Shown: piece by piece, positions 23,991 through 59,460 of the stretch
Position numbering within the stretch: the stretch's first letter is position 1
Layout of the letters: each line of letters opens with the position of its first letter
Source of the DNA: an uncultured Candidatus Saccharibacteria bacterium
GTDB lineage: Bacteria > Patescibacteriota > Minisyncoccia > 2-02-FULL-40-12
Reading direction: 5' to 3'
Assembly (NCBI GenBank): GCA_964368135.1
Contig: CAYIZI010000001.1
Location: forward strand, 42,926 to 106,925
Length of the DNA: 64,000 nt
Translations under genes and position numbers: made by a program
The notes under the pieces: generated by a model
Database searches by the model: none
What the model saw: the letters and a program-made list of their open reading frames with translations, nothing else
Told to the model about the DNA's origin: nothing

Positions 23991-24101
23991 CCCGTTAGAA
24001 ATTTTACAGACCGTCAACCACTCTAAGCTGGTAGCTAAACTTATAAAACTTCATATCACTTAATTTGTGTTTATTCCCGTTAGGGCTAACTTCTAACGGG
24101 A
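23990..24101. promoter_or_regulatory. Candidate toxin-antitoxin operator: three copies of TCCCGTTAG
   Basis: tcccgttag at 23990-23998 (touching the antitoxin start codon) and 24075-24083, with the inverted copy ctaacggga at 24093-24101. Confidence 0.4.
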
Positions 24102-24136
24102 TTCATATCTAAAGTATATACAACGGATATTTAATG

Positions 24137-40961: not shown

Positions 40962-40962
40962 T

Positions 40963-43150: not shown

Positions 43151-43159
43151 ATTTATTTA

Positions 43160-43690
43160 TTAGCTTTTAAAATCCGGCCAAGATGAATCTTTTTCAGAAA
43201 CATGCTCTACCGCTACCGGCCAATCAAAATTAAATTTCTTATCATTAAATCTAATTCCTTTTTCACATTCGGCCGTAAACGGCGCCGTATATAAATTTAT
43301 AAATTCAACATCGTCTCCCAGGGTTAAAAATCCGTGGGCAACGCCTTTAGGAACATACAGTGATTTCATATCTGAATCGCTAAGCTTAAAACCCTGCCAC
43401 TTCAGGTATGTCGGAGAGTTAGGTCTTACATCAACAATAACTTCATAGATAGAACCCCTGGTAACTCTGGTCAACTGGGCCATCTCTTGAGGTTTAATCT
43501 GATAATGGATTCCTCTGATTGTGCCTTTATTTTTTGTAAAAGAAATATAGCCCTGAACAATTTCATTGCTTATATTTACTTTTTTAAACTCATCCTTGCC
43601 GAATATGCGGGTTAAATTGCCTCGGTCATCCTCTCGCTTGGCAAGTTGAATTAAATACGAACCTTCAATGTTTGTTTTTATAAATTCCAT
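43160..43690 (-). CDS. NDP-4-keto-6-deoxyhexose 3,5-epimerase (RmlC-like cupin)
   Basis: REDDRGNLTRIF, GTIRGIHYQ, LYVPKGVAHGF. Confidence 0.75.
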   Translation of the reverse strand: MEFIKTNIEGSYLIQLAKREDDRGNLTRIFGKDEFKKVNISNEIVQGYISFTKNKGTIRGIHYQIKPQEMAQLTRVTRGSIYEVIVDVRPNSPTYLKWQGFKLSDSDMKSLYVPKGVAHGFLTLGDDVEFINLYTAPFTAECEKGIRFNDKKFNFDWPVAVEHVSEKDSSWPDFKS

Positions 43691-43691
43691 A

Positions 43692-44723
43692 TTATTTTTT
43701 AACTTTCCAATTAAGCATATTGTCCAACTGGCCAGTTTCCATCAGGTATTTTATTTCTTTTAATCTGGTGAATGGATTCGACTCAAATACCTCCTTGGTC
43801 ATGGAAATTTTTTCAAATATTTGTTTTAACTGCTCGGCCCCGTCTTTAATGCTCCACTGGCATTTAAATCCGGGCAGTTTAGAATATATTTTGTCAAAAT
43901 TTACTCTGTAACTTCTGTTGTCGCTGCCGGCCTGGTCCATTGTAATTTTGCAATTGGGGAATACGTCAGATATTACTTTGGCAATATCTCTGACCTGATA
44001 ATTCCCTTTGTTGCTCCCAACATTGAATACTTGATTATGGACGACTTCTTTAGGCGCTTTAGCGGCGCAAATCATTGCCTGGCAAATATCAAGAATATGA
44101 ACCAATGGCCTCCAGGGAGTACCGTCGCTATTTAGTTTTATCTCTTTATCAACCCAGGCCAAGCCACTAAGGTTATTCAATACGATATCAAATCTCATTC
44201 TTGGAGAGGGTCCGTAAGCCGTGGCATTTCTTAAAAATACGGGCGAAAAATTATCATCGGCCAGTTTAAATAATTCTTTTTCCACCAATATTTTGCATTT
44301 AGCATAAGCTGTCTGGGGATTGACGGCAGACTCTTCAGTCACCAAATCATCTTTGGCAATGCCGTAAACGCTGCACGAAGACGAATATATAAACCTTTTG
44401 ACACCGGCTTTCTTGCATTTTTCAGCCAGTGAAACCGAGCCATGATAGTTTATGGAATAGGTTAAATCAGGGTTAATTTCGCCGAGAGGATCATTAGACA
44501 GCTCGGCCAGATGAATAACAACGTCAAATCCTCTTAAATCATCTTCGGTCACATCACGGGTATCTTTGCGCAGAATTTCCGGCTGTTTGCCAAAACCGTT
44601 ATAAAGCTGGCCGGACTTATAAAATCCGGCATCTAAACCAACCACCTCATATCCTTTTTCGATCATTTTAGGAGCTAAGACAGAACCGATATATCCGTCT
44701 GCTCCGGTTATTAATATTTTCAT
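43692..44723 (-). CDS. NAD-dependent sugar epimerase/dehydratase (extended SDR)
   Basis: The internal ATG at 44723 gives MKILITGADGYIGS. SSCSVYG and YAKCK (YxxxK). The upstream gene stops 2 nt before it. Confidence 0.8.
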   Translation of the reverse strand: MKILITGADGYIGSVLAPKMIEKGYEVVGLDAGFYKSGQLYNGFGKQPEILRKDTRDVTEDDLRGFDVVIHLAELSNDPLGEINPDLTYSINYHGSVSLAEKCKKAGVKRFIYSSSCSVYGIAKDDLVTEESAVNPQTAYAKCKILVEKELFKLADDNFSPVFLRNATAYGPSPRMRFDIVLNNLSGLAWVDKEIKLNSDGTPWRPLVHILDICQAMICAAKAPKEVVHNQVFNVGSNKGNYQVRDIAKVISDVFPNCKITMDQAGSDNRSYRVNFDKIYSKLPGFKCQWSIKDGAEQLKQIFEKISMTKEVFESNPFTRLKEIKYLMETGQLDNMLNWKVKK

Positions 44724-44725
44724 AA

Positions 44726-45448
44726 TTACCAAACCTTCCAAAGGGCCTGGCCTTTTTGCCAAAGCTCCTCCAGAATATTTTTATCTCTTAGCGTATCCAG
44801 ACACATCCAAAATCCTTTGTGGCGATACGCGGCTAATTTACCGTCTTCGACCAACTGCTTCATTGGTTCTTGTTCAAAAACAGTTTCATCTCCTTGGATG
44901 TAATCAATTACTTTCGGGTCAAGAATAAAAAATCCGCCGTTTATCCACGAACCCCCATTTTTTGGTTTTTCCCTGAAACTTGATACCAATCCATTCTTGC
45001 CCTCAATTTTTAAAATACCGAACCTCCCTTCCGGCTGAACTGCTGTTACGGTGGCTGGTAAATTATGGCCATTATGGAATTCTAAAAGTTTTTTTAAATC
45101 AACATCGGCAACACCGTCGCCATAAGTAAGGAAAAACTGGCCATTACCAAGATAATCTTTTATTCTCTTTATCCTGCCGCCGGTCATGGTTTCCTGTCCG
45201 GTATCAACAATGGTTATATTCCAATTTTCATTATCAATCCCTTTGCTAAAATACTCCTTTATCATGTCGCCTTTGTAGCCGGCACAAATGATAAAGTCGT
45301 TAAAACCCTGGGTTGAAAATATTTTCATAACATGCCAAAGCATCGGTTTGCCGCCGATTTCAACCATTGGCTTAGGCCTGACCGAAGTTTCCTCGGCTAT
45401 CCTGGTGCCATAACCGCCTGCTAAAATTACCACTTTCATATCATTCAT
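44726..45448 (-). CDS. rfbF: Glucose-1-phosphate cytidylyltransferase
   Basis: MKVVILAGGYGTRIAEETSVRPKPMVEIGGKPMLWHVMKIFS..GFNDFIICAGYKG matches the RfbF N-terminus well. Confidence 0.8.
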   Translation of the reverse strand: MNDMKVVILAGGYGTRIAEETSVRPKPMVEIGGKPMLWHVMKIFSTQGFNDFIICAGYKGDMIKEYFSKGIDNENWNITIVDTGQETMTGGRIKRIKDYLGNGQFFLTYGDGVADVDLKKLLEFHNGHNLPATVTAVQPEGRFGILKIEGKNGLVSSFREKPKNGGSWINGGFFILDPKVIDYIQGDETVFEQEPMKQLVEDGKLAAYRHKGFWMCLDTLRDKNILEELWQKGQALWKVW

Positions 45449-45452
45449 ATAG

Positions 45453-46364
45453 TTAATTATTCTTACAAAAATCTTTGACGTAATTTATGTCTTCCTGGGA
45501 CAGCTTCGGCCAATACGAACTCACCAGCCACTTGCCGCCTAACATCACTGAATTACTGTTAAAAGCTTCCTGCGTCTTCAGATTGGACAGACCAATGGCG
45601 TGACCAAAACCGTGAATCATTTCTCTTATCAAGGCGGATTCTATTAATTTCCCTTCATCTGCTAAACTGCCTAAATAAACATTACTGTTGGCTGCATAGT
45701 CAAATAAGGCCGTAAAAATATTCAGCATAAAATGATCCACGGTTCCATTGCTATATATCTTTTGATACGAAACATCAGTATAATCATAATCTTCCCCATT
45801 CTTAAATTTAAAGGCCGGGTCAAGAATAAAGTTAACCGTATTTACGGTTCCTTGGTAATTATTGAATAAATCAATACCCAAAGCATCTTCCCACTGTTTT
45901 TCGGCATAACCGAGAAGCTCGTTAAGCCGCTGGCGGCTATAACCCAGTTCAAATAATCTCACATCAACATTCCCTAATTTGTAGGTTAGTTGAATTGAAC
46001 AATGAGCCGGAGGCGGCAGAGGCGTAGGCGTGGGAGTTGGAGTTGGGGTCGGAGTTGGAGTTGGGGTCGGTTTCGGAACTGGTTTTGGTTTTTGCGTAGA
46101 ACTTGGAGTAGAAACCGGCCCAATCGGCGATTCAGACGGTTCTGACGTAGCCGATGGACTTAAAATAGGAGTCGGCGTCGGAGTTGATTCTTCAAATAAT
46201 TGGGCAATGAGGGCCGCCGGGTTATTATCAGTATTCATTATCTTACTTAAACCAAAAGTAAATCCGACTGAAATAATCAATGCAAAAGCAGGAACTAATA
46301 CAGACAGTGGGATGAAACCTGACTTTATGCTTATTATTTTTTTGTTTTTGTTGGTTTTATTCAT
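45453..46364 (-). CDS. Secreted protein with (PT)n linker and degenerate metzincin-like motif
   Basis: Signal anchor, PKPVPKPTPTPTPTPTPTPTPTPLPPP, and C-terminal HGFGHAIGLSN (HExxHxxGxxH with E to G and the last H to N). Confidence 0.5.
   Translation of the reverse strand: MNKTNKNKKIISIKSGFIPLSVLVPAFALIISVGFTFGLSKIMNTDNNPAALIAQLFEESTPTPTPILSPSATSEPSESPIGPVSTPSSTQKPKPVPKPTPTPTPTPTPTPTPTPLPPPAHCSIQLTYKLGNVDVRLFELGYSRQRLNELLGYAEKQWEDALGIDLFNNYQGTVNTVNFILDPAFKFKNGEDYDYTDVSYQKIYSNGTVDHFMLNIFTALFDYAANSNVYLGSLADEGKLIESALIREMIHGFGHAIGLSNLKTQEAFNSNSVMLGGKWLVSSYWPKLSQEDINYVKDFCKNN
46033..46068. repeat. Perfect 18-bp tandem duplication inside the (PT)n coding tract
   Basis: ggagttggagttggggtc occurs twice (46033-50 and 46051-68), embedded in a longer ggNgtN periodic tract. 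Confidence 0.9.
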
Positions 46365-46370
46365 ATTTTT

Positions 46371-49300
46371 TTACTTACTGATTATTGATAAAAACGCCTT
46401 GCTTGTTTTACTCCAGTCAAAATTACTGGCCCATTTTACTGCTTCCTGGCTCATCCGGTCGCGGAGATCCTTGTCTCGAATTATCGTTAAGATACTCTCC
46501 GCGAATGCATCGCTATTGCCGTAAGAAACAAGGCGGCCAGTTTCCATATTTTTCACAGAATCCCTTAAGCCCGGTACGTCAGAAGCCACTATCGGGGTGC
46601 CGCAAGCATTGGCTTCAATCGTGGTAATGCCCCACCCTTCCATAAACGAAGGATTTACAAATACCCAGGCTTTTTGAAAAAGTTCTATTTTCTCTTTTTC
46701 AGAAACCTTTCCTCTAAATACTACTTTGCCGTTAAGATTAAGTTCAGAGGCTAATCTTTTTAACGAATTTTCTTCTTCGCCGCTGCCGACAATGACCAAC
46801 CGGGCATCATCAACTTGTCTTATAACCTTTTCAAAAGCTCTTACTAAAACATCAACCGACTTATAGGCTTTAAGCCTTCCCAAATAAAGAATAGTCGGTT
46901 CCGGACTCTTTCTCCCAAGAGTTAAATTTTTAGAATTGACTCCGGGATGGACTATTTCAATTCCTTTCTTAGTTCCAAGGCCAAAACTCTGAATATCTTT
47001 TTTGCTTGATTCCGAAACCGTAATAAACTTTACATTCCGGTAGACTATGGGCATCAAATCCTTCTCTAAAAATATTGCCAGCTTTGCTAAGGGTTTAGGC
47101 AAAGAATGCCTGAAGACTTCCTGATGGATATGATGGATAAGACAATAAATCGGCTTCCTTGAATAGATGGGCGTAAAAAAAGGAATGCCGTTATGACAAT
47201 CAACTATGATGTCATATTTGCCTCTGAATTGGGTCAGGTAGTAAATAAAAGCCCAGAGGTAAACAAAGTAAAACCCGCCTCTTCTTATGATTTCAACCCC
47301 ATCTATAATTTCTCTTCTCTTTGAATAACTGTCATTGCCGCAAAAAACAGTGACCTGGTGTCCATCCTTGACCCACTGTTTGGCGATTTCGTGGACATAA
47401 AGTTCTGCTCCGCCACCATATATATGCCTTGTGTCTCTCCAGTTAAATATAAGAATCCTCTTGCCGAGCTTCGCCATCGGAGCCTCGGTTTCAATAGGTC
47501 TAAACGCATCTTTCAAATCAATAATGCCCCTCCAGACAAACTTAAGCCTGCCCTCAAGTACGTGGAATAAATAAACCAGGCCCAACCCAAAGATGCTGGC
47601 CCATAAAATAACATTGACTATCTCTTCGACGCTGCCGTGATTTAGGATTATGCCGATAGACATAAACAATGAAGCAGTCATTGAAATAATCGGGAATATA
47701 AATTGCCTTTTAGCCAAATGATAGACGACTATAGAATTTGAAATCGTGAAAACAGTAAGCGCGAGAGTGTAAATATTAAGATAAGGCAGAATGGCCAGCG
47801 TCTTGGAGCCAAAAAGTATCGGCACGGTTAAATTGCCCAGAGGGCCCAAAAAAATAAACCCGGCTAATGACAAAAGGACGGTTGAACCAACCAGCAGCTC
47901 AAATGTCTTTTTAGTATTTCTCTTTAATCCCTCGTCTCGGCCAATCAAAGTAATCATAAATATATTGGGCAGAGAGCCGAGAAAATATATCATCTTGCCG
48001 ACAAGCGATATTAGAGTGTACTCGCCGGCCAAACGCGGCGATAAAAAGTGTTTGACTAAAATAATGTCAATGCTTAAAAATATCGTCGCCGACATTAAAG
48101 TAAGTATTGAGGCGTAGAAAAACCTGCCCGGAAACTTATGGTTTTTAGTCTGAATAAAATCTTCAGAATGCCTTGAAACAGCCAAAACAGAAGCCATTGA
48201 AGCAACCGCTATGGATATCGGAATTGAAAGATAAACTAAATGATTTAACCCATACCAGGCGAAAAGAGCCGCCGCAATAAACTTACTTACTGATTCAAAA
48301 AGAATAACGAAAGCAACACTGGTAAAGTAAAGATTGCCATTAAGAAACCCCCTGTTTGCCGACGCAATCACTCCCAAAGTCAGAACCGGAGTGAACATAA
48401 AAAGGATGGACTGGCTGCTTATGTTAAAGAAATTAGAAAGGAATGAAACTGAAACTATCCACATTACCGATATGCCTAAGGCAATAGGAATTGCTTTGTT
48501 CAAAGTTGATTTGAGAAACGCAAGCGCCGACCCCTCACCCTTTTCAACGGCCAGATGAGCAGTCTTATGGTTTACCGTTGAGGAAACCGCGCCCATAAAT
48601 ATCGCCGCTACTGACCATAAAGTATTAACCAGTATCACTAGACTAAGTTCTTCAAAAGACAAAACCCTTCCCAGGAAAGCGTTAAAAAGAAAATTAAGGA
48701 AATTGGCGAACATCATCGCCGCAATCATAAGCGCCGCTCCCGAAAGAGCATTTTCGGTCAGCGATAACGGCAAAAATTTATTAGTGGTTTTTTTCAGCCA
48801 AGAATCTTTCTTTATAAAATTAAGAGTCAATTCAGGTTTCGGGGCCGGTCCCGATTTTATCGTCCCTAAAACAGGTAAGGGTTTTAATTTCTTTAAATGC
48901 AGGCCGTGCTTGGTCTTTTCCCAGAAATGCGGCTTAATGAAAAGCTGGTAAGTTGCCATTACCGCGGCAATACTCATAAAGAACCAATAGAAAGGTATTA
49001 AAAAGACATATTTTATTATTGGCCAGTGGCCCCTTTTGGCACAGCCGATCATGTAATAGTAAAAATAGAGAAAATTCCCGAAGACCAGAGAAAAAACGGC
49101 GATATAAAAGACCGGGGTCGGATATATTGATTCTATGGTCGGACCGACAACGGAACGCAGGGCGAAATAAGAGATCGTCATAAACCACAAAATTGGATTT
49201 ATAAGCATAAAGACAATTTTGCCGCCGATGTTAAGCTGGAAAAGAAAAGTATGGATGCCGCTTTTTTTCAAAAATTCCATCGGCTTTCTCATATGAACCA

Positions 49301-51047
49301 GATATGTCTGCATATAGCCCTTAATCCACCTTGACCTCTGCCTTATCCAGTTCCAAACCTGACTATTTGCTTCTTCAAGAGTTATTGAATCAATAATCGC
49401 CGTGTTGAAACCCTGTTTAAATAACCGCACCCCCAAGTCGGCGTCTTCGGTAACGTTGAAGGGATCCCAACCCTTAAGATTCCTTAAGTCGGCGGTCCGG
49501 AAATGGTTGCTGGTGCCGCCAAGAGGAATTGAAGTATTAATTGACTGAAGACCCGGCAGAATGATTTCAAACCACAACGAGTACTCGGCCGTAAAAAGCC
49601 GGGTCAAAAGATTTTGATTGGTGTTATAATAATTGAGTTTTGCCTGAAGACATTTAACTTTTTCTGGCACTCTTTGAAAAGCCAAATAAGCTTTCTTAAG
49701 CTGCTGGGGTTCGGGCATATCTTCGGCGTCGTAAACGACAAGATACTCACCCTTGGCTGAATTAAGACCATAATTGCAGGCCTTGGGCTTGGTCTTAGGC
49801 AAAGAGTGAGGAACGATTACTATCCTTACGTAGCTTGGCAAATCTATTGACCTGGCAGTATCTATTGTCTCTAAGTCGTTTTCTTCTAAAAGCAGCTGGA
49901 CATCCAATTTATCCTTAGGCCACTCCAATTTGCTTATTGAATTTAAAAATTTTGGAAGAACCGCTGATTCCCGATAAAGCGGGCAGAGAATCGCATAAAC
50001 CGGCAGAGAACTTTCGTCTATCCGGGAAAGTTCCTCATCAGTAAAACTAAGTTCCGGAGGATTATGCAGACTTTTTGTGATAAGGAATAAATTAAACAAA
50101 ACGTCAAAAAAGTATAGAGAGCTTAAAACAGCCATTAAAGCTATGGCCGTATAGAGCGGGAAAAATAAAAATCCGGCAACAGCCAAAATAACGGATAGAA
50201 ATATTAAAAATTTCTGGCTGGCGGTAAATGTGATTAGGGCCGAGGTTTCACTGTCAAGATTAGAATGAGTAATGAACCTTCTGCCTTTATGGGCCATTCC
50301 GGCGCCGATCATACTTGATTCGTCTTGCGGCGGTATTTGAATCGGCTTTTTCTTTTTTAACTTGTTGGCCAACGCGTTAGTGCCTATTTCCCAACTGGCT
50401 TTTATGACATTGATTTTTGATTCACCGGAATGCCTCTTTTCAAAATCTATATTAACGGTGGCTATTTCATGGCCGGCGTATCTGGCGTTAACCAAGAATT
50501 CCAGATCAAAGGTCCACTGGGACGGATTAACTGCTATTTCCTTGGTTATCTGTTTTTTAAAAACTTTTAACCCTGACTGGACATCGCACTTAAGCCCGTG
50601 AAGAATCCGGCCAAAAACAAAATTAAAACCTTTGCTGGCCAGCTTTCTTAAGGGGCTTATGCCTTTATAACGTCTATTGGCCACAACTACGCCGGCGCCA
50701 TCTCTAATTTTTCTCACCATTTCCGGTATCGCTTCCGGCGGGTACTGCAGGTCAGCGTCAATCATCCCGACAGTGTCATACTTGGCATAATCAAAACCCT
50801 CAAGAATAGAAAAGGCCTTACCCTTTTTGCCTTTCTTCAAATGACAACTAATTGGATATTCGTCGGCCAGATTATTGGCAATCTTAACCGTATTATCGGT
50901 TGAGTGGTCATCTATTGTGACTATTTCATACTCAATACCGCCTTTTTTTAAAGCATTATCAATCCTCTTGACTAACTTCTGGATATTTCCTTCTTCATTA
51001 AAAGTAGGAATAATTATTGATACTTTTTCAGTGTTTTTGGCCTCCAT
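46371..51047 (-). CDS. 1558-aa multidomain glycan-assembly protein: GT2 (polyprenyl-phosphate-sugar-synthase-like) + processive GT2 + MOP/Wzx-like flippase + GT4
   Basis: aa 8-230: IIIPTFNEE, DDHSTDNT, DADLQYPP. aa 347-585: YDAED, TEDADL, QRSRW. aa ~765-1165: about 12 TM helices with a polysaccharide-biosynthesis/flippase-like N-terminus. aa 1196-1558: EGWGITTIEANACGTPIVASDVPG. Confidence 0.8.
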   Translation of the reverse strand: MEAKNTEKVSIIIPTFNEEGNIQKLVKRIDNALKKGGIEYEIVTIDDHSTDNTVKIANNLADEYPISCHLKKGKKGKAFSILEGFDYAKYDTVGMIDADLQYPPEAIPEMVRKIRDGAGVVVANRRYKGISPLRKLASKGFNFVFGRILHGLKCDVQSGLKVFKKQITKEIAVNPSQWTFDLEFLVNARYAGHEIATVNIDFEKRHSGESKINVIKASWEIGTNALANKLKKKKPIQIPPQDESSMIGAGMAHKGRRFITHSNLDSETSALITFTASQKFLIFLSVILAVAGFLFFPLYTAIALMAVLSSLYFFDVLFNLFLITKSLHNPPELSFTDEELSRIDESSLPVYAILCPLYRESAVLPKFLNSISKLEWPKDKLDVQLLLEENDLETIDTARSIDLPSYVRIVIVPHSLPKTKPKACNYGLNSAKGEYLVVYDAEDMPEPQQLKKAYLAFQRVPEKVKCLQAKLNYYNTNQNLLTRLFTAEYSLWFEIILPGLQSINTSIPLGGTSNHFRTADLRNLKGWDPFNVTEDADLGVRLFKQGFNTAIIDSITLEEANSQVWNWIRQRSRWIKGYMQTYLVHMRKPMEFLKKSGIHTFLFQLNIGGKIVFMLINPILWFMTISYFALRSVVGPTIESIYPTPVFYIAVFSLVFGNFLYFYYYMIGCAKRGHWPIIKYVFLIPFYWFFMSIAAVMATYQLFIKPHFWEKTKHGLHLKKLKPLPVLGTIKSGPAPKPELTLNFIKKDSWLKKTTNKFLPLSLTENALSGAALMIAAMMFANFLNFLFNAFLGRVLSFEELSLVILVNTLWSVAAIFMGAVSSTVNHKTAHLAVEKGEGSALAFLKSTLNKAIPIALGISVMWIVSVSFLSNFFNISSQSILFMFTPVLTLGVIASANRGFLNGNLYFTSVAFVILFESVSKFIAAALFAWYGLNHLVYLSIPISIAVASMASVLAVSRHSEDFIQTKNHKFPGRFFYASILTLMSATIFLSIDIILVKHFLSPRLAGEYTLISLVGKMIYFLGSLPNIFMITLIGRDEGLKRNTKKTFELLVGSTVLLSLAGFIFLGPLGNLTVPILFGSKTLAILPYLNIYTLALTVFTISNSIVVYHLAKRQFIFPIISMTASLFMSIGIILNHGSVEEIVNVILWASIFGLGLVYLFHVLEGRLKFVWRGIIDLKDAFRPIETEAPMAKLGKRILIFNWRDTRHIYGGGAELYVHEIAKQWVKDGHQVTVFCGNDSYSKRREIIDGVEIIRRGGFYFVYLWAFIYYLTQFRGKYDIIVDCHNGIPFFTPIYSRKPIYCLIHHIHQEVFRHSLPKPLAKLAIFLEKDLMPIVYRNVKFITVSESSKKDIQSFGLGTKKGIEIVHPGVNSKNLTLGRKSPEPTILYLGRLKAYKSVDVLVRAFEKVIRQVDDARLVIVGSGEEENSLKRLASELNLNGKVVFRGKVSEKEKIELFQKAWVFVNPSFMEGWGITTIEANACGTPIVASDVPGLRDSVKNMETGRLVSYGNSDAFAESILTIIRDKDLRDRMSQEAVKWASNFDWSKTSKAFLSIISK

Positions 51048-52587: not shown

Positions 52588-52633
52588 ATATCTTAGATTA
52601 TACCTATGAAATGGGATACTGAAAATTAGAATC

Positions 52634-52660
52634 ATAAAACCGCCTCTTGGGTGGTTTTAT
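52634..52660 (-). terminator. Terminator hairpin after the major pilin gene
   Basis: ataaaaccgcc-tcttg-ggtggttttat (one mismatch), preceded by a second palindrome cactcat-at-atgagtg at 52674-52689. Confidence 0.45.
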
Positions 52661-52702
52661 GATTTAGTTTACCCACTCATATATGAGTGAGGGGTTGCTC
52701 TC

Positions 52703-53179
52703 TTAACGAGTGACTTCGATTATTTGTCCAAGCTCAGCTGAAGGCGCACTAATTGTAACCCTTCCAGCTGAATCAACTTCTAAATCATAGCCAGTATCGT
52801 CTCCTACTGCTGATGTTGGATCTGTAGGAAATGACGGAACGTATGTTGGTGTAAGGCAAGAAAGATCAATATCTCCTGCCACGGCACCAGAAGTAACAAT
52901 ATCGACTGCCGAACCGGCAGCTGGAAGCGATGGACATGTATATGTAGTGCCGCCGATTGTGAATGAACCGCTGAAAATTCCTTTATTATCAGCAATCCTT
53001 TGGCCAACTGAGTTCAAAATAGTGTTAGCATTACTGGTTCTCTGGGTATTTCTGCCTTGGGCAAACTGTCTGGCTGGGTTTATGGCGATCAAGACAATAG
53101 TTGCTAAAATAGCAATAATCCCGATAACTACCAGAATTTCAATAAGGGTAAAGCCCCTATTTTTTCTTTGATTTTTCAT
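52703..53179 (-). CDS. pilA: Type IV pilin (prepilin with class III signal peptide), probable major subunit
   Basis: MKNQRKNRG/FTLIEILVVIGIIAILATIVLIAINP: canonical G/F cleavage site and Glu+5. Own promoter-like signal and AGGAG SD. Last gene of the operon. Confidence 0.8.
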   Translation of the reverse strand: MKNQRKNRGFTLIEILVVIGIIAILATIVLIAINPARQFAQGRNTQRTSNANTILNSVGQRIADNKGIFSGSFTIGGTTYTCPSLPAAGSAVDIVTSGAVAGDIDLSCLTPTYVPSFPTDPTSAVGDDTGYDLEVDSAGRVTISAPSAELGQIIEVTR

Positions 53180-53239
53180 AATCTCCTGATTTTTTAAACT
53201 ATATCAATTTATCGACCTGATTTTTAAAGATAAAGAGAG

Positions 53240-53266
53240 GTTATAATGGGATATGGGTCTTGTCAA
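53240..53266 (-). promoter_or_regulatory. Candidate promoter for the major pilin gene
   Basis: The minus strand reads TTGACA (53266-53261), 15 nt, TATAAC (53245-53240). AGGAGA SD before the ATG. The spacer is shorter than optimal. Confidence 0.35.
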
Positions 53267-53269
53267 TAT

Positions 53270-53731
53270 TTATGGAAAATTTCCTATCTCTTCCCAAGAT
53301 TCAACTTCTATTTTGCCAAATGGTTTTGAAACAATTATTTCAAGATTAGTATAGGAACTTTTATTGCCGTCTTGAGGGTATTTGCCTTGAACTTGGATTG
53401 TCTTAGTCCCAGAGCCGGATATTGAATAAATAATACATGAATCATCACCAACCGGAATAGTTTCGCCAGGCGGCGAAAGCGAGTAATCATTAAATTCGTC
53501 ATCATTTAGCGCCTGTAATTTTAAAATCGCGGTGTCGGCGCAGGCCTCGGCCAAGCCAATGCTTTTTTCCTTAAACTCTGAATCAAGAACATTTATCCTG
53601 GCGAAAAAACTGCGAAAGCCCAAAGCAAAAGTAATAGTCATCAAAATAATGGCAATAATGACCGTAGAAATCAAAGCAATATAGCCGTTTTTATTTCCGG
53701 ATAAATTTGGTGGTCTCATAATAAAAATCAT
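53270..53731 (-). CDS. Minor pilin-like protein lacking Glu+5 (PilX/GspK-like position)
   Basis: SGNKNG/YIALISTVIIAIILMTITFAL hydrophobic N-terminus without Glu at +5. Overlaps the upstream gene by 41 nt. Confidence 0.45.
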   Translation of the reverse strand: MIFIMRPPNLSGNKNGYIALISTVIIAIILMTITFALGFRSFFARINVLDSEFKEKSIGLAEACADTAILKLQALNDDEFNDYSLSPPGETIPVGDDSCIIYSISGSGTKTIQVQGKYPQDGNKSSYTNLEIIVSKPFGKIEVESWEEIGNFP

Positions 53732-54209
53732 TTAAGTAAAAGTTGGTCTTGACTGCTGGGGGCTGGCCAGTGGCTGAAGGAGGAATATACTCAAAGCTCA
53801 AAGTGGCGGCTTTTACGCTATCGCTGTCTAAGGCCAAAAAAACTCCTATCCCTGGATCAATCTCAATATTTTCGTTAACCAATCTAAATTTGACTCGTTG
53901 GGATAAACCATATTTATCAACTGACAGTTCATCCCCTTCTGGCGGGATAATTATTGGAGTTGGGTTTGATAAATCTATTCCAGTCAACGCCCAATTTATT
54001 TTCCGCAAAACAAAGTTGGCCTCGTCGCTGATTAAAACCTTAATGTTGGAACGGTCGGTTGCTTCAATAACTGAATAAACCGAAACAATCACTCCGGCCA
54101 TTAATAGAGAAAAAAGAGCTATATATATTAGCACTTCAATAATGGTAAATCCATTTTCGTGACTAAATTTAGACATCAGAAAATCAATTGCAAACTGGTG
54201 ATGGTTCAA
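53691..54209 (-). CDS. Pseudopilin/minor pilin with prepilin N-terminus
   Basis: SHENG/FTIIEVLIYIALFSLLMAGV. Confidence 0.65.
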   Translation of the reverse strand: MNHHQFAIDFLMSKFSHENGFTIIEVLIYIALFSLLMAGVIVSVYSVIEATDRSNIKVLISDEANFVLRKINWALTGIDLSNPTPIIIPPEGDELSVDKYGLSQRVKFRLVNENIEIDPGIGVFLALDSDSVKAATLSFEYIPPSATGQPPAVKTNFYLNDFYYETTKFIRK

Positions 54210-55785
54210 TAATCCGCAGTTTGCTTTGTTGGTTAGTTACTGTGTAGATAACGTCGTTCTCATAAGCAAAGTTTTGCGGGTCTACTGAAAAGTTATAGGG
54301 ACAGGTATCCCATCTCTCAATATTGGCCGGATCACTTACATCTAAAACAAGAAAGGGGTCGTTGGGATCTCTTGTTGTAACAAAAGCTAACTGTCCTGAA
54401 ACTTTAATGCCGGTAATGCCCGCACCCTGGTTATAATTAAAAAAATCATTAAAGTTTACTGACCCAGGAGCAGAAGATAAGTCGTTAGTATCAACAACGT
54501 AAAAATCTCGGTCATTCCCTGGATTTGAACGTCCTATTCCAAGATAAATTTTATTTCCAATAACATATAAATCTCTCCCGTCTTTTGAACTTGCCGAACC
54601 GTCGGCTCTTTCCGCATCAAAGGTACCGGCAATAGTTATATTTAAAGGATTGGCTATATTAAGAACGATAATTTCCTCGTTATTAGAAGAAGTGGCAAGA
54701 TAGGCCCTATCCTCTCTTACTTCAATATCATTGATATTATGATCTACTTGGGTAGAGCCTGTATTCCCAAGGTGAACGGGGTTTGTTGGATCAGTTACAT
54801 CAAAAATGTGAAACTCCGAACCGCCAACTCTATGGGTACCTATATAAATGCGGTTATTGTAATAAGCAATGCTTCGTCCGCCGGGACAAGTAAAATTACA
54901 AGTTCCACTTACTCCGGGTAAAGACACAGAAGCAATTTGAATAGGCGCCGCGGGGTCAGTCACATCAATTACCTGGAGTTGGCCGCTGGCTTTTTCATTG
55001 CCGCTGCCACTGCCGTCATCCGGATCGTAAAAATCTCCGTGGATACTGGCCGCAAAAATATAACGTTTATTTAACGATTGAAAATCAACGGCCACTAAAT
55101 CAACAATCCCGTTTAGTTTTTTACCTGGTCCCCAATCCACCCCGATACTCCCTAAAAAAACTGGGTTTGAAGTATTAGCCGCATCATAAATAAATAGGTC
55201 ATCTAAATTTTCATTAGAATCATAGACCCCTAAGTAAACAATCTTATTCAGGACGGCAATACTTTCACCGTTAACAGTATTTATAATAATATTGTCGTGA
55301 TTGGTTACGGGATTCCTCCAATTATCATTTGACGGAGATATTATGGAACAATTACTGCCAGCATCAATAAAAGCTTTTAGACTGCCGATAATACTAGAAA
55401 TACTTATTGATTGAGGCCTGTTTTCCACATCCCAATCAATAGTACTTTTAATTTCTTTGACACAGGGAGAGATATCTAATACTTCTAAAGTTTTAGTGTA
55501 AATGTCAGTCGTAGTCGGAGTTGTAGAAATAATGGAGTTAAATTCTCCGACTGTACCACGAGATTGAGCTCGAGTATTCTCAAGTTCCTCTTGAGCAAAA
55601 TACAAAGCTTCCTGATTTGTCTCGGTGTCTATTTCGGTTGACTGACCGCCAAACAAAACCATTATCACCGCGGAAATCGTCAAAACGAAAATAAACATCG
55701 CAATCATAATTTCCATTGTGGTCAGACCGCTTTCTAACCCGCTCTGGCGCTTAAGTTTCTTAGTAATTGATCCGGCCTTGTTCAT
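54184..55785 (-). CDS. Pseudopilin N-terminus fused to an LVIVD-repeat beta-propeller
   Basis: LESG/LTTMEIMIAMFIFVLTISAV. Then repeated strands LFIYDAANTSNPV, LQVIDVTDPAAPI, FHIFDVTDPTNPV, IIVLNIANPLN, FYVVDTNDLSS, FLVLDVSDPANI. Confidence 0.65.
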   Translation of the reverse strand: MNKAGSITKKLKRQSGLESGLTTMEIMIAMFIFVLTISAVIMVLFGGQSTEIDTETNQEALYFAQEELENTRAQSRGTVGEFNSIISTTPTTTDIYTKTLEVLDISPCVKEIKSTIDWDVENRPQSISISSIIGSLKAFIDAGSNCSIISPSNDNWRNPVTNHDNIIINTVNGESIAVLNKIVYLGVYDSNENLDDLFIYDAANTSNPVFLGSIGVDWGPGKKLNGIVDLVAVDFQSLNKRYIFAASIHGDFYDPDDGSGSGNEKASGQLQVIDVTDPAAPIQIASVSLPGVSGTCNFTCPGGRSIAYYNNRIYIGTHRVGGSEFHIFDVTDPTNPVHLGNTGSTQVDHNINDIEVREDRAYLATSSNNEEIIVLNIANPLNITIAGTFDAERADGSASSKDGRDLYVIGNKIYLGIGRSNPGNDRDFYVVDTNDLSSAPGSVNFNDFFNYNQGAGITGIKVSGQLAFVTTRDPNDPFLVLDVSDPANIERWDTCPYNFSVDPQNFAYENDVIYTVTNQQSKLRIIEPSPVCN

Positions 55786-56275
55786 TGATGGTTATGGTTA
55801 AGGGAGGTTTACCCACGCTAATCAGAGTAATCTCAAGCGGCGCCGCCGCTACATTCCCAGTCAGCTGCTCAAAATTTATAATCCCGGACCAGGCTATCCC
55901 TAATCTTTCTATCGGGATACTTTCATTGCTTGGATCATTTGGAACGTAAACTGAACCTTCAAAAATTACAAGCTCTTTTTTAGCGTCATCATAATAAACG
56001 CTGTAAGACGACTGATTAATATTGCTGACGGCCTGATTCCTGGCTTTCTGCAAAATACTTATCACTATATCTTTGTCGTAATTAAAAGAATAGGTTCGGT
56101 AAAAATCCATACTCAAAAAAAGGCCGATGCCCATTAGCAGAACCAAAATACCGATGGCAACCAGAATTTCAATAATAGAGAATCCGTTACTACGCCGGCC
56201 GGCTAAATTAAGGCGAGAGGTTCCTGGTAATTTCATAAATCGGGGTAATGATTGAAACAGCAATAAAGCCGACAA
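55760..56275 (-). CDS. Pseudopilin (GspH/FimT-like) with prepilin N-terminus
   Basis: RRSNG/FSIIEILVAIGILVLLMGIGL. The true start may be the internal ATG at 56236. Confidence 0.65.
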   Translation of the reverse strand: MSALLLFQSLPRFMKLPGTSRLNLAGRRSNGFSIIEILVAIGILVLLMGIGLFLSMDFYRTYSFNYDKDIVISILQKARNQAVSNINQSSYSVYYDDAKKELVIFEGSVYVPNDPSNESIPIERLGIAWSGIINFEQLTGNVAAAPLEITLISVGKPPLTITINEQGRINY

Positions 56276-57278
56276 TCAAACCCATAAACACCATCAAAGC
56301 CGGCTCAAGGATCGTAGATAAATTCTTAGTCAGTTCGTCCATCTCGGCCTCATACATTTCGGCCAGATAAAGTAAAGTTTCATCCAAGCGGCCGGTTGAT
56401 TCGCCGATTTCAATCAAATGAGTCAAAATATGCGGGAAAAGGTCTGGCCTTCTTTCCATCTGACTGACTATTTTTTCGCCCTTAACCACGCACTTTGAAA
56501 TCTTCACAAGTTCGTTTCGGTAGACCAGATTAGTGGTCGTCTGCGAGGCAATTAAAAAAGCATTAATCACTCTGATGTCGCTTTTGATCAAAATTCCAAG
56601 GGTCCGGCAAATATTGGCCAAGTGATAATTCTTGAATATCGGACCAATCAAAGGCATTTTAAAGCTGGCCAGGTGCAGAAGATAGCGAAACTTATCCGAA
56701 GTCCTAAAAAAAACAATTAAACCAACCGCCAAAACAATAATCCCGGCAACTAAAAACAACCCATAGGCCTTCAAAAAATCAACGCTGGCAATCAGGGCCC
56801 GGGTAGTAAGGGGCAGGTTCACATTCAAACTGGCGAAAATCGGCAAAATCTTCGGGAAAATATAAAGAGTTAAAAGGCCGGCCAAACCTAAAGTAGCAAT
56901 AATTATAAAAATCGGATAAACCAGCGCGCCCATCACTTTACGCTGCAGGGCCTGCTTTTTCTTCATCTCATCGGCCAAATAGTTCAGGTTCTCGTCCAGA
57001 GTACCGCTCTCTTCGCCGACCCGAATCAAATTAATGGCCAGCTGGTCAAAGTTATGCCGAAACTTAGCCAAACTGCTTGAAAGATACTGACCGTTGGAAA
57101 CGTCTTTAATCACCTGGTCAAGAACCAATGACTTGGCGCCCGATGGACTTTGTTTTCTTAAAATATTTAAACTCTGGAGCAAGGGCACGCCGGCCTTAAC
57201 CAAAAAAGACAGCCGCTTGGCAAAAAGGGTTTTCTCTTTTACGGAAATTCTGGTAAATAACTCTCTTAATCTACTCAT
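56208..57278 (-). CDS. pilC: Type IV pilus platform protein PilC (T2SS F family)
   Basis: Two T2SSF repeats (FAKRLSFLVKAGVPLLQSL...; LANICRTLGILIKSDIRV...), three TM segments. Ends ITPIYEITRNL. Confidence 0.85.
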   Translation of the reverse strand: MSRLRELFTRISVKEKTLFAKRLSFLVKAGVPLLQSLNILRKQSPSGAKSLVLDQVIKDVSNGQYLSSSLAKFRHNFDQLAINLIRVGEESGTLDENLNYLADEMKKKQALQRKVMGALVYPIFIIIATLGLAGLLTLYIFPKILPIFASLNVNLPLTTRALIASVDFLKAYGLFLVAGIIVLAVGLIVFFRTSDKFRYLLHLASFKMPLIGPIFKNYHLANICRTLGILIKSDIRVINAFLIASQTTTNLVYRNELVKISKCVVKGEKIVSQMERRPDLFPHILTHLIEIGESTGRLDETLLYLAEMYEAEMDELTKNLSTILEPALMVFMGLIVGFIAVSIITPIYEITRNLSP

Positions 57279-58503
57279 TGATCACTCTCAAAACTTCCTC
57301 CAGAGTGGTAATGCCTTCTTTGGCTTTCCTGATGCCGTCCTCAACTATAGTGGTCATCCCATTGCCGGAAGCGATTAACTTAATCTCATTGGCCGAAGCC
57401 CTCCTTAAAAAAGCTTCTCTGACCATATTGTCTACAACCATCACTTCAAATATGCCGACTCGGCCCTGAAAACCGGTCTCGCCGCATTTCTCACAGCCCC
57501 TGCCGTAATAAAACTGCCAGTTGGAATCTGAACCCAAAACCGAATTCTGGAAAAAATTTTCCAAGCTCTTCTTTTCGGCGTCGGTCAGCTTTCTTAAAGT
57601 TTTGCATTTGGGGCAAATTTTCCTGACCAATCTCTGGGCAATGGCCAAGTTGACCGTTGAAGCAACCAGGTACGGCTCAACTTTCATATCTAATAATCTG
57701 GGCAAAGTGGTGGCCGCGTCATTGGTATGCAAAGTGGACAAAAGCAGGTGGCCGGTTAAAGCGGTGTTGACAGCTAAGGCCGCGGTCTCAACATCTCTGA
57801 TTTCGCCAACCATTATTATATCGGGGTCCTGCCGTAAAATTGACCTTAGTCCGTTGGCAAAGTTTAAGCCGACCCGGGAATTAACCTGAATCTGTTCAAT
57901 TCCTTCAACCGCGTATTCAATCGGGTCCTCCACCGTGACAATTGAAACATCTTTGTTGTTTAAAAATTTTAAAACGGTGTAAAGAGTGGTGGTTTTGCCA
58001 GATCCGGTCGGTCCGGTGGCTAAAATCATGCCGTGACTTTTTTTGGCGGCCCTCAAAACCTTTTCCTTGTCTGACGGACTAAAGCCAAGTTTATCCAAAG
58101 TGTATTCTTCTTCCTTATCTGATAAAAGACGCAAAACCGCGTTCTCGCCGTAATAGGTTGGAGCTACGGAAACGCGAATATCAATCGGCGCCTGCCCGTC
58201 AAAAGCAATACTGAACCGGCCGTCTTGAGCAGTCTGGTGTTCGTCAGTCCTTAAGTTTGATAAAATTTTAATTCTGGAAACCACCTCTGATTTGATTTCT
58301 CTTGGAAAAGTAAAAAAATCCTGCAAAACGCCGTCAATTCTAAACCTGATTCTGACTCCCTTTGTGCCCGGGTCAATATGAATATCCGAAGCCCGCGAGT
58401 TGTGGGCGTATTCTATTAAGTTGTCCACCAGGCTGATTAAGGAAATCTGTTCAGAGTTTTGCTCAATTTCCCGCTCAATTTTATTTCTTAGTTCTGTTGA
58501 CAT
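57271..58503 (-). CDS. pilB: Type IV pilus assembly ATPase PilB (GspE family)
   Basis: Walker A GPTGSGKTTTLY, Asp box, Walker B DPDIIMVGEIRD, His box GHLLLSTLHTNDA, tetracysteine CPKC...CEKC. Confidence 0.85.
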   Translation of the reverse strand: MSTELRNKIEREIEQNSEQISLISLVDNLIEYAHNSRASDIHIDPGTKGVRIRFRIDGVLQDFFTFPREIKSEVVSRIKILSNLRTDEHQTAQDGRFSIAFDGQAPIDIRVSVAPTYYGENAVLRLLSDKEEEYTLDKLGFSPSDKEKVLRAAKKSHGMILATGPTGSGKTTTLYTVLKFLNNKDVSIVTVEDPIEYAVEGIEQIQVNSRVGLNFANGLRSILRQDPDIIMVGEIRDVETAALAVNTALTGHLLLSTLHTNDAATTLPRLLDMKVEPYLVASTVNLAIAQRLVRKICPKCKTLRKLTDAEKKSLENFFQNSVLGSDSNWQFYYGRGCEKCGETGFQGRVGIFEVMVVDNMVREAFLRRASANEIKLIASGNGMTTIVEDGIRKAKEGITTLEEVLRVINE

Positions 58504-58583
58504 TAGAGAAAAATTAATCTTAATCGTATAATCTTATATCTTTCCTTTGAATATAGTCAACAAAAAAAGCCCAAAGAGCCATG

Positions 58584-58614: not shown

Positions 58615-59181
58615 GTATAGGCCAATAAACGCAGCCAGGGTGTTAAAAACGATATTGCCTAAAGTCATCGGAATCATCAGCCGCCAGTAAGGATAGTGAA
58701 TAAAACCAAGGGGCATGACCACCAAATCATCAGGCAGAGGGATAAAAGCGCCGTAGCTGAAAATGGCCAGACTGGCCAGCCACTTGGGATGAGACAAAGA
58801 CCATTCATAAGCCCGGTCAATGGTTTTTTGAATTCTTGAAGGGATAATTTCCCGGCCATGATATGCAATAACATAAGAAGTTGAATCACCCAAGAAAAGG
58901 CCGATGCCGGCCACAAAACCCAAAAGAAATGGGTTTAACCCGCCGGCGGCAAAAGTCATCACAAAGAGATAATAAGGAATCGGAACAAAGGTTGAGATGC
59001 CGCCCAAGAAAGCCAAAACAAAGGTAATCAAATAGCCGTTTCGGACGCCCAGAATCTCAATAATGTCAGCCGGCGGAATCCGGTAAATAAAAACTGTCCA
59101 GGCGACAAAAAGAGCAATCAGGATTAAAAAAGGAAATTGGGCTTTACTAACTATCCCCCGCACCTTTTCTGAATAGGTCAA
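58597..59181 (-). CDS. YqaA/DedA-like (VTT-domain-like) membrane protein
   Basis: 194 aa, TTG start. FLGGISTFVPIPYYLFVMTFAAGGLNPFLLGFVAGIGLFLGDSTSY. Both gene ends lie inside the repeat copies. Confidence 0.5.
   Translation of the reverse strand: MTYSEKVRGIVSKAQFPFLILIALFVAWTVFIYRIPPADIIEILGVRNGYLITFVLAFLGGISTFVPIPYYLFVMTFAAGGLNPFLLGFVAGIGLFLGDSTSYVIAYHGREIIPSRIQKTIDRAYEWSLSHPKWLASLAIFSYGAFIPLPDDLVVMPLGFIHYPYWRLMIPMTLGNIVFNTLAAFIGLYTPHLF
59156..59174. repeat. Inverted 19-bp copy of the repeat core
   Basis: ccccgcaccttttctgaat is the reverse complement of attcagaaaaggtgcgggg (58595-58613 and 59441-59459). Encodes residues 3-8 of the membrane protein. Confidence 0.95.
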
Positions 59182-59435
59182 GACGACAAACTGCCGAGTA
59201 TTCTTCTCTTAAGCTGAGAATATACTTTACCGAACTGTTTCAGTTTTTTCTCACGGTTTCTGACGTCTTGACCGTTTAGATAACCTTCACAATAAACTAA
59301 CTTCCAAGGAATGAAAGCTTTAGTCGACCGATTATATCCTAAATTATGTTCTCTTATCCTTTTTAAAATATTAGTTGTTATGCCAATATATAATTTCTTG
59401 TTTTTATCGCTTTTCAATAAATAGACATAGAACAT
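59178..59435 (-). CDS. Small stand-alone GIY-YIG nuclease-family protein (85 aa)
   Basis: MFYVYLLKSDKNKKLYIGITTNILKRIREHN...PWKLVYCEGY...RNREKKLK. Only the last 85 codons of track ORF 59178-59765 are credible. Confidence 0.75.
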   Translation of the reverse strand: MFYVYLLKSDKNKKLYIGITTNILKRIREHNLGYNRSTKAFIPWKLVYCEGYLNGQDVRNREKKLKQFGKVYSQLKRRILGSLSS

Positions 59436-59460
59436 AATAAATTCAGAAAAGGTGCGGGGT
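59430..59460. repeat. 31-bp direct repeat, copy 2
   Basis: Identical to 58584-58614. Contains the GIY-YIG start codon and begins 3 nt after the stop of the 345-aa gene. Confidence 0.95.

Follow-up and report, generated by a model that had tools for sequence, protein, structure and literature searches.

A seven-gene type IV filament locus with a propeller-fused minor pilin in Patescibacteria from groundwater

In type IV filaments, the H-, I-, J- and K-type pilins form a tip complex that is capped by K, the subunit without Glu5, and that primes assembly (PMC9934059). Modular pilins, in which an adhesive module has been grafted onto a pilin, are widespread and occur in CPR bacteria as well (PMC8179133), and in the Saccharibacteria TM7x (Nanosynbacter lyticus) a beta-propeller minor pilin, PilX2, is required for host binding and not for filament extrusion (PMC11623550). 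[quoted passage not shown] The TM7x genes, however, are spread over four loci, one of them adjoined by PilM/N/O, PilT and PilD, whereas the present cassette is self-contained and has none of these nearby. The propellers differ as well, that of PilX2 consisting of RCC1 repeats on a protein with a non-canonical signal peptide, and ours of LVIVD repeats on a putative I-type pilin whose Gly(-1)/Glu5 signal is canonical.

In gene content a close counterpart is comGA-comGG of Bacillus and Streptococcus, likewise a monoderm machine of seven genes for an ATPase, a platform protein, one major pilin and four H/I/J/K minor pilins, with a K-type subunit lacking Glu5, a peptidase encoded elsewhere, and no PilM/N/O, PilT or secretin. 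Our locus shares this composition, with putative H-, I- and J-type subunits, but not the order, since the major pilin gene stands third in comG and last here; the putative I-type subunit also carries a propeller of about 390 residues, and no comEA or comEC is annotated within 81 kb. Compared with GspH-I-J-K of the type II secretion system (T2SS) and FimU-PilV-PilW-PilX with PilY1 of type IVa pili, the K-type subunit is minimal and without an alpha-domain, and the propeller and a pilin form one polypeptide, in place of a separate, non-pilin PilY1. The modular pilins of Streptococcus sanguinis bear other modules (PilB-vWA, PilC-lectin; PMC8179133, PMC9934059), and its three-member PilABC set with a Glu5-less PilA contrasts with a four-member H-I-J-K-like set here.

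Genes of the locus

The window, by which we mean the whole 64,000-nucleotide stretch of contig CAYIZI010000001.1 that was analysed, derives from the 0.1 µm fraction of Hainich groundwater, and the nearest relatives of its source, an ultra-small bacterium, are Candidatus Yanofskybacteria. Seven ORFs, all intact, occupy positions 52703-58503 on the minus strand and encode PilB, PilC, four minor pilins and the major pilin (Table 1). Both the coordinates of these ORFs and their original prediction as a compact type IV pilus operon were upheld, the latter by searches against protein families, by predicted structures and by synteny. Identical copies of the locus were assembled in several independent samples. 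Its upstream boundary is marked by a terminator-like hairpin with which the preceding VTT-domain gene ends.

Table 1. Features of the locus and dprA, with positions in the window
Feature	Position	Strand	Size	Evidence or remark
terminator-like hairpin and T-run	58568..58580	-		GGCTCTTTGGGCT then TTTTTTGTTG; consensus match only
promoter-like site 5' of pilB	58531..58560	-		TTGACT, 18-nt spacer, TAAGAT; hexamer scan not above shuffled
pilB, assembly ATPase (gene 1)	57271..58503	-	410 aa	Pfam T2SSE, 410 bits
pilC, platform protein (gene 2)	56208..57278	-	356 aa	two Pfam T2SSF stretches, 172 bits
minor pilin 1 (gene 3), putative H-type, GspH/FimT-like	55760..56236	-	158 aa	N_methyl, SNG↓FSIIE
minor pilin 2 (gene 4), putative tip adhesin	54184..55785	-	533 aa	pilin module and seven-bladed LVIVD beta-propeller
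minor pilin 3 (gene 5)	53691..54176	-	161 aa	N_methyl, ENG↓FTIIE
minor pilin 4 (gene 6), K-type cap without Glu5	53270..53719	-	149 aa	longest ORF from 53731
spacer 5' of major pilin	53183..53266	-		promoter-like hexamers; Shine-Dalgarno AGGAG at 53183-53187
major pilin (gene 7)	52703..53179	-	158 aa	N_methyl, 37.8 bits; TIGR02532
two terminator-like hairpins 3' of major pilin stop	52630..52691	-		RNA fold
dprA (PF02481)	25967-27103			25.6 kb from operon; directly adjoins topA

PilB contains the Walker A motif GPTGSGKT, the Walker B motif DPDIIMVGEIRD, the His box TGHL and two CxxC pairs (CPKC and CEKC), and is without the N-terminal MshEN/GspE-N domain. Among NCBIfam models it scored 509 bits to GspE and 487 bits to PilB, with the PilB profile covered at positions 169-563 only, while PilC scored 278 bits to GspF and 242 bits to PilC, both under the cut-offs. 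A PilB/GspE-family ATPase, a platform protein of the PilC/GspF family with two T2SSF stretches and class III signal peptides on the pilins thus place the locus in the type IV filament superfamily.

A motif scan of the whole window found five prepilin-like ORFs, all of them inside the operon. In four of these (longest ORFs 55760-56275, 54184-55785, 53691-54209 and 52703-53179) the sequence G↓F(T/S)xxE is followed by a hydrophobic helix, and in the fifth (53270-53731) it is replaced by G↓YIALIS, which lacks Glu5. A neighbouring DUF5671 gene (59464-60501), whose C-terminus had been suspected to be pilin-like, was rejected for want of Pfam support. The major pilin has a 9-residue leader (MKNQRKNRG↓FTLIE) and a mature length of 149 aa with two Cys and 40% Gly/Ala/Ser/Thr; its orthologues occupy the same position in related loci.

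The pilin fold was modelled for two subunits, the proteins of genes 4 and 6. The AlphaFold2 model of the former (pLDDT 86) consists of a helix (residues 20-75), a head (91-134), a linker and a propeller (about 150-533), which is the architecture of a modular pilin: an N-terminal pilin module, a linker and a grafted module, here a propeller. What had been noted as an LVIVD pseudopilin is more than a pseudopilin, being a pilin, apparently of I-type, fused to a seven-bladed propeller. The I-type (ComGE/PilV/GspI-like) character of the module is suggested by profile matches to ComGE (15/17), PilV (11/17) and XpsI (8/17), all under cut-offs. The top structural matches of the propeller were generic WD40/YncE-type propellers, with no characterised adhesin or PilY1 among them; the protein matches Pfam LVIVD, has no PilC/PilY1 domain and is itself a prepilin, and it differs in these respects from the PilY1/PilC adhesin family.

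For the protein of gene 6, comparison of the structure model identified a true pilin fold with GspK and the Glu5-less PilA of S. sanguinis as its nearest relatives, which bears out the earlier description of a pilin-like protein without Glu5, the feature that distinguishes K-type subunits. A match of this protein to the MET receptor IPT domain in a profile search against solved structures is probably spurious, and here the fold comparison was the informative one. With gene 3 and the pilin module of gene 4, the same profile search recovered nothing beyond the N-terminal helix that pilins share. Gene 3 had been called GspH/FimT-like, a label that stands at the level of the family, in which 7 of 13 orthologues match Pfam GspH (best E 6e-4), but not for the window copy, which has no match; its orthologue alignment follows the pattern ...QKAR..A..N...HGV...F.G...F.QL(S/T)GN...IN..G.I. 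The protein of gene 5 has an invariant Tyr at +10, and its NCBIfam matches are N-terminal only and spread over minor-pilin types, with ComGF the best (E 5.4e-6), so that it is a J-type candidate only by position. On this evidence the four minor pilins would stand in the canonical H-I-J-K order, with H, I and J assigned from sub-threshold, mostly N-terminal matches.

Gene junctions and expression signals

Overlaps of 8, 68, 26, 26 and 41 nt had been reported for the gene junctions. These values are exact for the longest ORFs but too large with the likely starts, which give 8 nt (pilC/pilB), 29 nt and 26 nt, then a 7-nt gap or a 26-nt overlap, and finally 29 nt. The longest ORF of gene 3 begins at TTG 56275, and its likeliest start, also the choice of the gene caller, is ATG 56236, with a 29-nt overlap; for gene 6 ATG 53719 is likeliest, again with 29 nt. 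The two candidate starts of gene 5 are ATG 54176, which leaves a 7-nt gap, and TTG 54209 (172 aa, 26-nt overlap), and this junction may not overlap at all. Four junctions are forced to overlap because the Gly(-1) codon lies 4-31 nt past the upstream stop and the gap contains no canonical start. No Shine-Dalgarno sequence precedes any of the minor pilin genes, and a strong one is present at the major pilin only, a distribution that, with the forced overlaps, is consistent with translational coupling of the minor pilin genes.

The major pilin follows gene 6 after a spacer of 90 nt with promoter-like hexamers at 53198-53227 (TG in front) and a further TTGACA at 53261-53266. The two hairpins beyond its stop have a predicted dG of -28.5 kcal/mol (z -5.08), and 0/200 shuffles were as stable. 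The hexamers and hairpins behind the claim that the major pilin has its own promoter-like signal and terminator are present, but the hexamers are at chance level, with 19 promoter-like sites in the region against 15.9 +/- 4.6 in shuffled sequence. The spacing itself is kept in relatives, where the Gly(-1) codon of the major pilin lies 74-270 nt past the upstream stop, compared with 4-80 nt at most uninterrupted minor-pilin junctions.

Conservation and absent components

Genomes were scanned with an alignment of 11 propeller pilins as the seed, a 35-sequence alignment being too diverse for this purpose. The complete seven-gene order was found at 11 related loci (Yanofsky-, Nomura-, Giovannoni- and Wolfebacteria and other Patescibacteria MAGs) and a partial order at 8 further loci, and the cassette is also present on two long metagenome contigs. 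Each related locus has one PilB homologue. Across the full-order loci, identity was 59-88% for PilB versus 27-66% for the propeller pilin. In relatives, genes for GIY-YIG nucleases have been inserted in frame into prepilin leaders, and one of the long metagenome contigs has a GIY-YIG insertion in gene 6; the operon at 52703-58503 has no such insertion. In these GIY-YIG-prepilin fusions a single-stranded CTCTAACGGGGTTTACCCCGTTAGAG may, hypothetically, be the substrate of the nuclease.

The original prediction that the window holds no prepilin peptidase, PilM/N/O, retraction ATPase or secretin was correct, and the statement can be extended to positions 9625-90975 of the 126.9-kb source contig (about 81 kb, including the whole window), where no Peptidase_A24, second T2SSE ATPase (PilT), PilM/N/O or secretin is annotated. 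In this annotation the missing parts do not lie adjacent to the operon outside the window, the outcome that had been named in advance as counting against the prediction, and the linked PilM/N/O, PilT and secretin PilQ of a type IVa machine are lacking within this 81 kb. Absence of a secretin is expected with the CPR envelope. The Pfam annotation of two related contigs likewise lists no PilM/N/O for about 10 kb around the cassette, and other Patescibacteria from Hainich do encode PilM and PilO (PMC8672522). With no prepilin peptidase in the annotation of these 81 kb, processing of the prepilins depends on a gene not seen here.

Assembly, function and alternatives

Our preferred explanation, which as a whole we hold with moderate confidence, is that the locus represents a type IV filament cassette conserved in Parcubacteria (class Paceibacteria, CPR/Patescibacteria), encoding every component peculiar to a single pilus apart from the prepilin peptidase, and that the product is a pilus of Com-like, monoderm type whose predicted tip is a propeller adhesin. 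In this scheme an unlinked PilD-type peptidase would have to cut all five prepilins at Gly(-1), and PilB, presumably a hexameric ATPase whose tetracysteine motif binds zinc, would drive PilC in the cytoplasmic membrane. The four minor pilins, translated from overlapping frames without ribosome-binding sites, would be made at a low level and could come together in the membrane beforehand, forming a priming complex of H-I-J-K type with the Glu5-less GspK-like subunit on top. Because the propeller is borne by the putative I-type subunit of that complex, we propose that it sits at the pilus tip. The major pilin would be expressed from signals of its own, a strong ribosome-binding site among them, and would then polymerise beneath the tip complex and push it through the monoderm-type envelope. 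The propeller could bind some ligand there, either on host cells or on a surface. The order of these assembly steps is a proposal, and the propeller probably serves to stick the cell to its host or to a surface.

A competence (Com-type) pseudopilus used mainly for DNA uptake, in the manner of comGA-GG of Firmicutes, is the most serious alternative, although we consider it clearly less probable than the adhesive pilus. A short filament would bind extracellular DNA and pass it to ComEA/ComEC, an activity that would suit a CPR cell unable to make nucleotides. The match to the Com machinery is one of composition, however, and the individual Com models were all under their cut-offs (ComGA 251 versus 300 bits, ComGB 139 versus 240, ComGC 21 versus 75), PilB scoring higher to GspE and PilB than to ComGA; the gene order, with the major pilin last, is also unlike Com, and ComGC is smaller than the 149-aa mature major pilin. 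Com pili are not known to include a large propeller module, which one pilin of the cassette carries here. The presence of dprA had been taken to make DNA uptake plausible. The distance of 25 kb was right but the argument is weak, as dprA stands in its usual pair with topA and neither comEA nor comEC is annotated in the 81 kb, and we rejected a functional link, polysaccharide and housekeeping genes lying between dprA and the operon. One pilus could serve both adhesion and DNA uptake.

The highest NCBIfam scores of the ATPase and the platform protein, to GspE and GspF, together with minor pilins resembling GspH, I and K, could instead indicate a non-adhesive pseudopilus akin to type II secretion, with which a monoderm-type cell would push proteins across its wall or S-layer. 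We regard this as very unlikely: the scores fall short of the equivalog cut-offs (509 versus 630 for GspE, 278 versus 424 for GspF), GspC, D, L and M are absent from the 81 kb annotation, and a propeller pilin with a separately expressed, fairly large major pilin better matches a surface filament. Least probable of all, in our judgement scarcely credible, is a decaying or silent remnant that retains operon structure without function; the prepilin peptidase not seen in the 81 kb would fit such a locus, but all seven ORFs are intact, order and sequence are kept across distant Parcubacteria lineages at the identities given above for PilB and the propeller pilin, and identical copies come from several independent samples. 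A bolder form of the adhesive-pilus explanation, in which the seven genes and one unlinked prepilin peptidase are the whole machine, without PilM/N/O and PilT, is in our view rather unlikely. It would make this the smallest bacterial adhesive type IV pilus system, common to most Parcubacteria, with the PilY1-like adhesin function moved inside the I-type priming pilin.

Since type IV pili of CPR bacteria, a propeller minor pilin in Saccharibacteria and modular pilins have all been described, our finding refines the existing picture rather than changing it, and the locus illustrates well a kind of machine that is already known. It offers evidence that H-I-J-K priming, universal among type IV filaments, reaches the CPR in stripped-down form. 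Few uncultured bacteria are as abundant in groundwater as Parcubacteria, and a defined, conserved cassette with a single candidate adhesin, the propeller pilin, gives expression studies, binding assays and host prediction something definite to work on. If the seven genes and an unlinked peptidase did prove to be the whole machine, variation in the propeller (27-66% identity, versus 59-88% for PilB) would be the main determinant of the host or surface to which each uncultured episymbiont attaches.

Pilus operon and pilin types

The ORF listing of the window gave seven consecutive minus-strand genes (52703-58503), namely pilB, pilC, gene 3, the propeller pilin (gene 4), gene 5, gene 6 and the major pilin. 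Pfam assigned T2SSE and T2SSF to the two motor proteins (Table), an N_methyl prepilin motif to three ORFs and an LVIVD repeat, which we take to be IPR013211, to one. A six-frame motif scan of the window found exactly five prepilin-like N-termini, all within the operon: four with G↓F/LxxxE followed by a hydrophobic helix, and a fifth, G↓YIALIS, lacking Glu5. The ORFs, the Pfam matches and the five motifs all confirm the compact seven-gene pilus operon of the original prediction.

The nearest NCBIfam models were GspE/PilB for the ATPase and GspF/PilC for the platform protein, with every score under the equivalog cut-off. Both motor proteins were shorter than in model systems; the match of the ATPase to the PilB model was confined to positions 169-563, hence the N-terminal MshEN/GspE-N domain is missing, and PilC aligned to the GspF model only from about position 56. 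The Walker A, Walker B, His box and two CxxC motifs of the ATPase are the signature of assembly ATPases, not retraction ATPases.

Gene 3 had been called GspH/FimT-like. Alignment revealed such a pattern common to its orthologues, of which 7/13 matched Pfam GspH (best E 6e-4), but the window copy gave no match, so the call found support among the orthologues only. Isolated pilin modules of the propeller pilin matched ComGE (15/17), PilV (11/17) and XpsI/GspI (8/17), which are all I-type minor pilins, although every score was under the cut-off. Matches of gene 5 were N-terminal only and scattered over several minor-pilin types, and only its position assigns it to the J-type. Taken together, the order of the minor pilins matches gspH-I-J-K, fimU-pilV-pilW-pilX and comGD-GE-GF-GG. 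There, the four minor pilins form a priming complex at the tip, with K, which lacks Glu5, as the cap (PMC9934059).

Gene spacing and expression signals

The predicted overlaps of 8, 68, 26, 26 and 41 nt were reproduced as longest-ORF values, but both the gene caller and the location of the cleavage motif favoured ATG 56236 for gene 3 and ATG 53719 for gene 6, making a 29-nt overlap more likely for each, and gene 5 starts at either ATG 54176 (a 7-nt gap) or TTG 54209 (26 nt). As a start-independent measure of spacing we took the interval between the upstream stop codon and the codon for Gly(-1): 22, 31, 31 and 4 nt in the four minor pilins, and 114 nt in the major pilin. In genes 3, 4 and 6 this interval contains no canonical start codon, so the leader must begin within the upstream gene. 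The tight spacing was repeated at most uninterrupted junctions of related loci, where a longer spacer always precedes the major pilin.

A Shine-Dalgarno sequence was absent from all minor pilin genes, and the major pilin is preceded by AGGAG, 4 nt before its ATG, and followed by two hairpins (dG -28.5 kcal/mol, z -5.1). Promoter-like hexamers precede both pilB and the major pilin; a promoter scan showed no enrichment over shuffles. Based on the spacing and the expression signals, it is reasonable to infer that minor pilins of low abundance may be translationally coupled and the major pilin separately and highly expressed.

GIY-YIG nuclease domains in prepilin genes

In several related loci, pilin genes carry a GIY-YIG nuclease domain in frame in the leader region, with no stop codon (Table). 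One Yanofskybacteria operon contains three copies in consecutive genes 3, 4 and 5, two of them ~99% identical at the DNA level; three further related loci have single copies. The usual junction is ...LKNRLKRSLSLTG↓FTLIE... (also given as ...LKRSLSLTG↓FTLIE...), so the nuclease domain is followed by a restored Gly(-1)/Phe(+1)/Glu(+5) cleavage site, and the original leader is often kept upstream of it as ...GFTPLE. Such fusions made up 33 of the 120 listed homologue clusters in a homology search and 24 of the 150 best representatives in an exhaustive profile search. They come from Patescibacteria and from records with an Omnitrophota label, affect both major and minor pilins, and in one case lie within a locus carrying a secretin and PilM/N/O. 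We found no description of GIY-YIG fusion to prepilins in the searchable literature. It is a plausible idea that the insertion, possibly a selfish element, is tolerated because the leader that bears the nuclease is cytoplasmic and would be cut off by prepilin peptidase.

The GIY-YIG ORFs are flanked by inverted repeats, ACCCCGTTAGAG and CTCTAACGGGGT, also found as short hairpin elements without an ORF. Joined as a hairpin, these read in frame L-T-G-F-T-P-L-E, a mimic of the prepilin cleavage motif. Ssn-family single-strand-specific nucleases are likewise flanked by cognate hairpin repeats (PMC11893778), and the small GIY-YIG proteins resemble this family.

The window operon is without any GIY-YIG insertion. 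A GIY-YIG gene that stands alone and ends in a stop codon of its own sits between the DUF5671 and VTT-domain genes and is ~45% identical to the pilin-inserted copies of relatives. One degenerate copy of the repeat lies in the window, intergenic and just beyond the 3' end of topA.

Coordinates of features in the window and in related loci (L numbers, each with its own coordinates)
Feature	Locus	Position	Strand	Remarks
PilB	window	57271-58503	-	T2SSE, 410 bits; 410 aa
PilC	window	56208-57278	-	two T2SSF stretches; 356 aa
GIY-YIG gene, free-standing	window	59181-59444	-	88 aa; just upstream of pilB; Pfam E 1e-14
Glycosyltransferase	window	46371-51047	-	1558 aa; several GT2 and GT4 domains, large membrane region
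dTDP-rhamnose synthesis genes	window	40020-46364	-	with further glycosyltransferases; after the 1558-aa protein
dprA	window	25967-27103		adjoins topA directly
Degenerate repeat	window	23989-24003 / 24088-24102		15-nt arms, 93% complementary, 84 nt apart
GIY-YIG in prepilin	L009	9006-9282, 9764-10040, 11617-11893		three copies
GIY-YIG in prepilin	L013	2520-2900
GIY-YIG in prepilin	L021	9322-9600
GIY-YIG in prepilin	L029	12106-12480
GIY-YIG in prepilin	L030	279-1073
GIY-YIG in prepilin	L031	6001-6750
Inverted-repeat motif	L030	523-554
Inverted-repeat motif	L009	1505-1627
Inverted-repeat motif	L029	4791-4900, 13596-13659
PaaX_M-domain protein	L028	13175-13642		PaaX_M genes downstream of cassette in one relative, upstream in the other
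PaaX_M-domain protein	L029	6305-6844

Conservation, neighbourhood and function

The propeller pilin had 152 homologues at E <= 1e-3, mostly from Patescibacteria and mostly unannotated, with the closest in Candidatus Yanofskybacteria (66% identity); aligning 35 of these showed Glu5 to be nearly invariant. Scanning GTDB genomes, one for each species, yielded 19 loci, and gene order was determined by comparing the seven window proteins with the ORFs of each locus by BLAST. The full order was present in 10, whose labels are Yanofsky-, Nomura-, Giovannoni- and Wolfebacteria, Patescibacteria and, assigned automatically, Saccharibacteria. The other nine had a partial order, some on truncated contigs; in five of the nine, which are more distant, BLAST recognised pilB, pilC and the propeller protein alone. 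The same seven-gene block was found in unrelated neighbourhoods on two long metagenome contigs, of 640 kb and 303 kb; in one of them gene 6 carries a GIY-YIG fusion, and no PilD, PilM/N/O or PilT was listed within 10 kb of the cassette in either. On this evidence, the cassette is a mobile-looking, self-contained unit of this lineage.

An identical PilB is encoded by a 126,877-bp contig of Hainich groundwater (well H51, 0.1 µm fraction; ENA ERZ1292643) and by shorter contigs of other samples. Precomputed Pfam annotation covering contig positions 9625-90975, the whole window included, listed no Peptidase_A24, second T2SSE ATPase, PilM/N/O, secretin, ComEA or ComEC, in agreement with the predicted absence of peptidase, PilM/N/O, retraction ATPase and secretin from the window. 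The prepilin peptidase, like any PilM/N/O or PilT, may be encoded in the remaining 45 kb of this contig or in another part of the genome. The flanking genes have housekeeping or envelope roles. Upstream are those for VTT-domain and DUF5671 membrane proteins and peroxiredoxin, with rpoD and dnaG, and downstream are DUF192, msrA, an acetyltransferase, the 1558-aa multi-domain glycosyltransferase and the dTDP-rhamnose cluster. The dprA gene, predicted to be 25 kb away, lies 25.6 kb from the operon. The glycosyltransferase block, starting 1.6 kb downstream of the major pilin, could serve cell-envelope or protein glycosylation. In two distant relatives, small (155-179 aa) PaaX_M-domain proteins, which may be regulators, flank the cassette; no counterpart adjoins it in the window.

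Grafted-module pilins are widespread, CPR included, and a published table has IPR012902-IPR013211 architectures (PMC8179133). Type IV pilus genes are reported to be enriched in small-cell Patescibacteria of the same aquifer, with PilM and PilO listed in representative genomes (PMC8672522), and in another Paceibacteria family host attachment was linked to a pilBCDMT cluster (PMC9763046). Grafted-module pilins, the propeller minor pilin PilX2 of Saccharibacteria and CPR type IV pilus genes are already described.

The composition and context of the operon fit the predicted monoderm-type machine, one resembling the Com pilus, which likewise has seven genes and an unlinked peptidase and lacks an alignment complex, a retraction ATPase and a secretin. 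Gene order, similarity scores and a large, presumably adhesive module set the window operon apart from it. It is unlikely that the operon encodes a secretion pseudopilus or is a dead locus. DNA uptake is a live alternative or additional role. The nearest functional precedent is Saccharibacteria TM7x, which needs its propeller-bearing minor pilin PilX2 to bind the host but can extrude filaments in its absence (PMC11623550).
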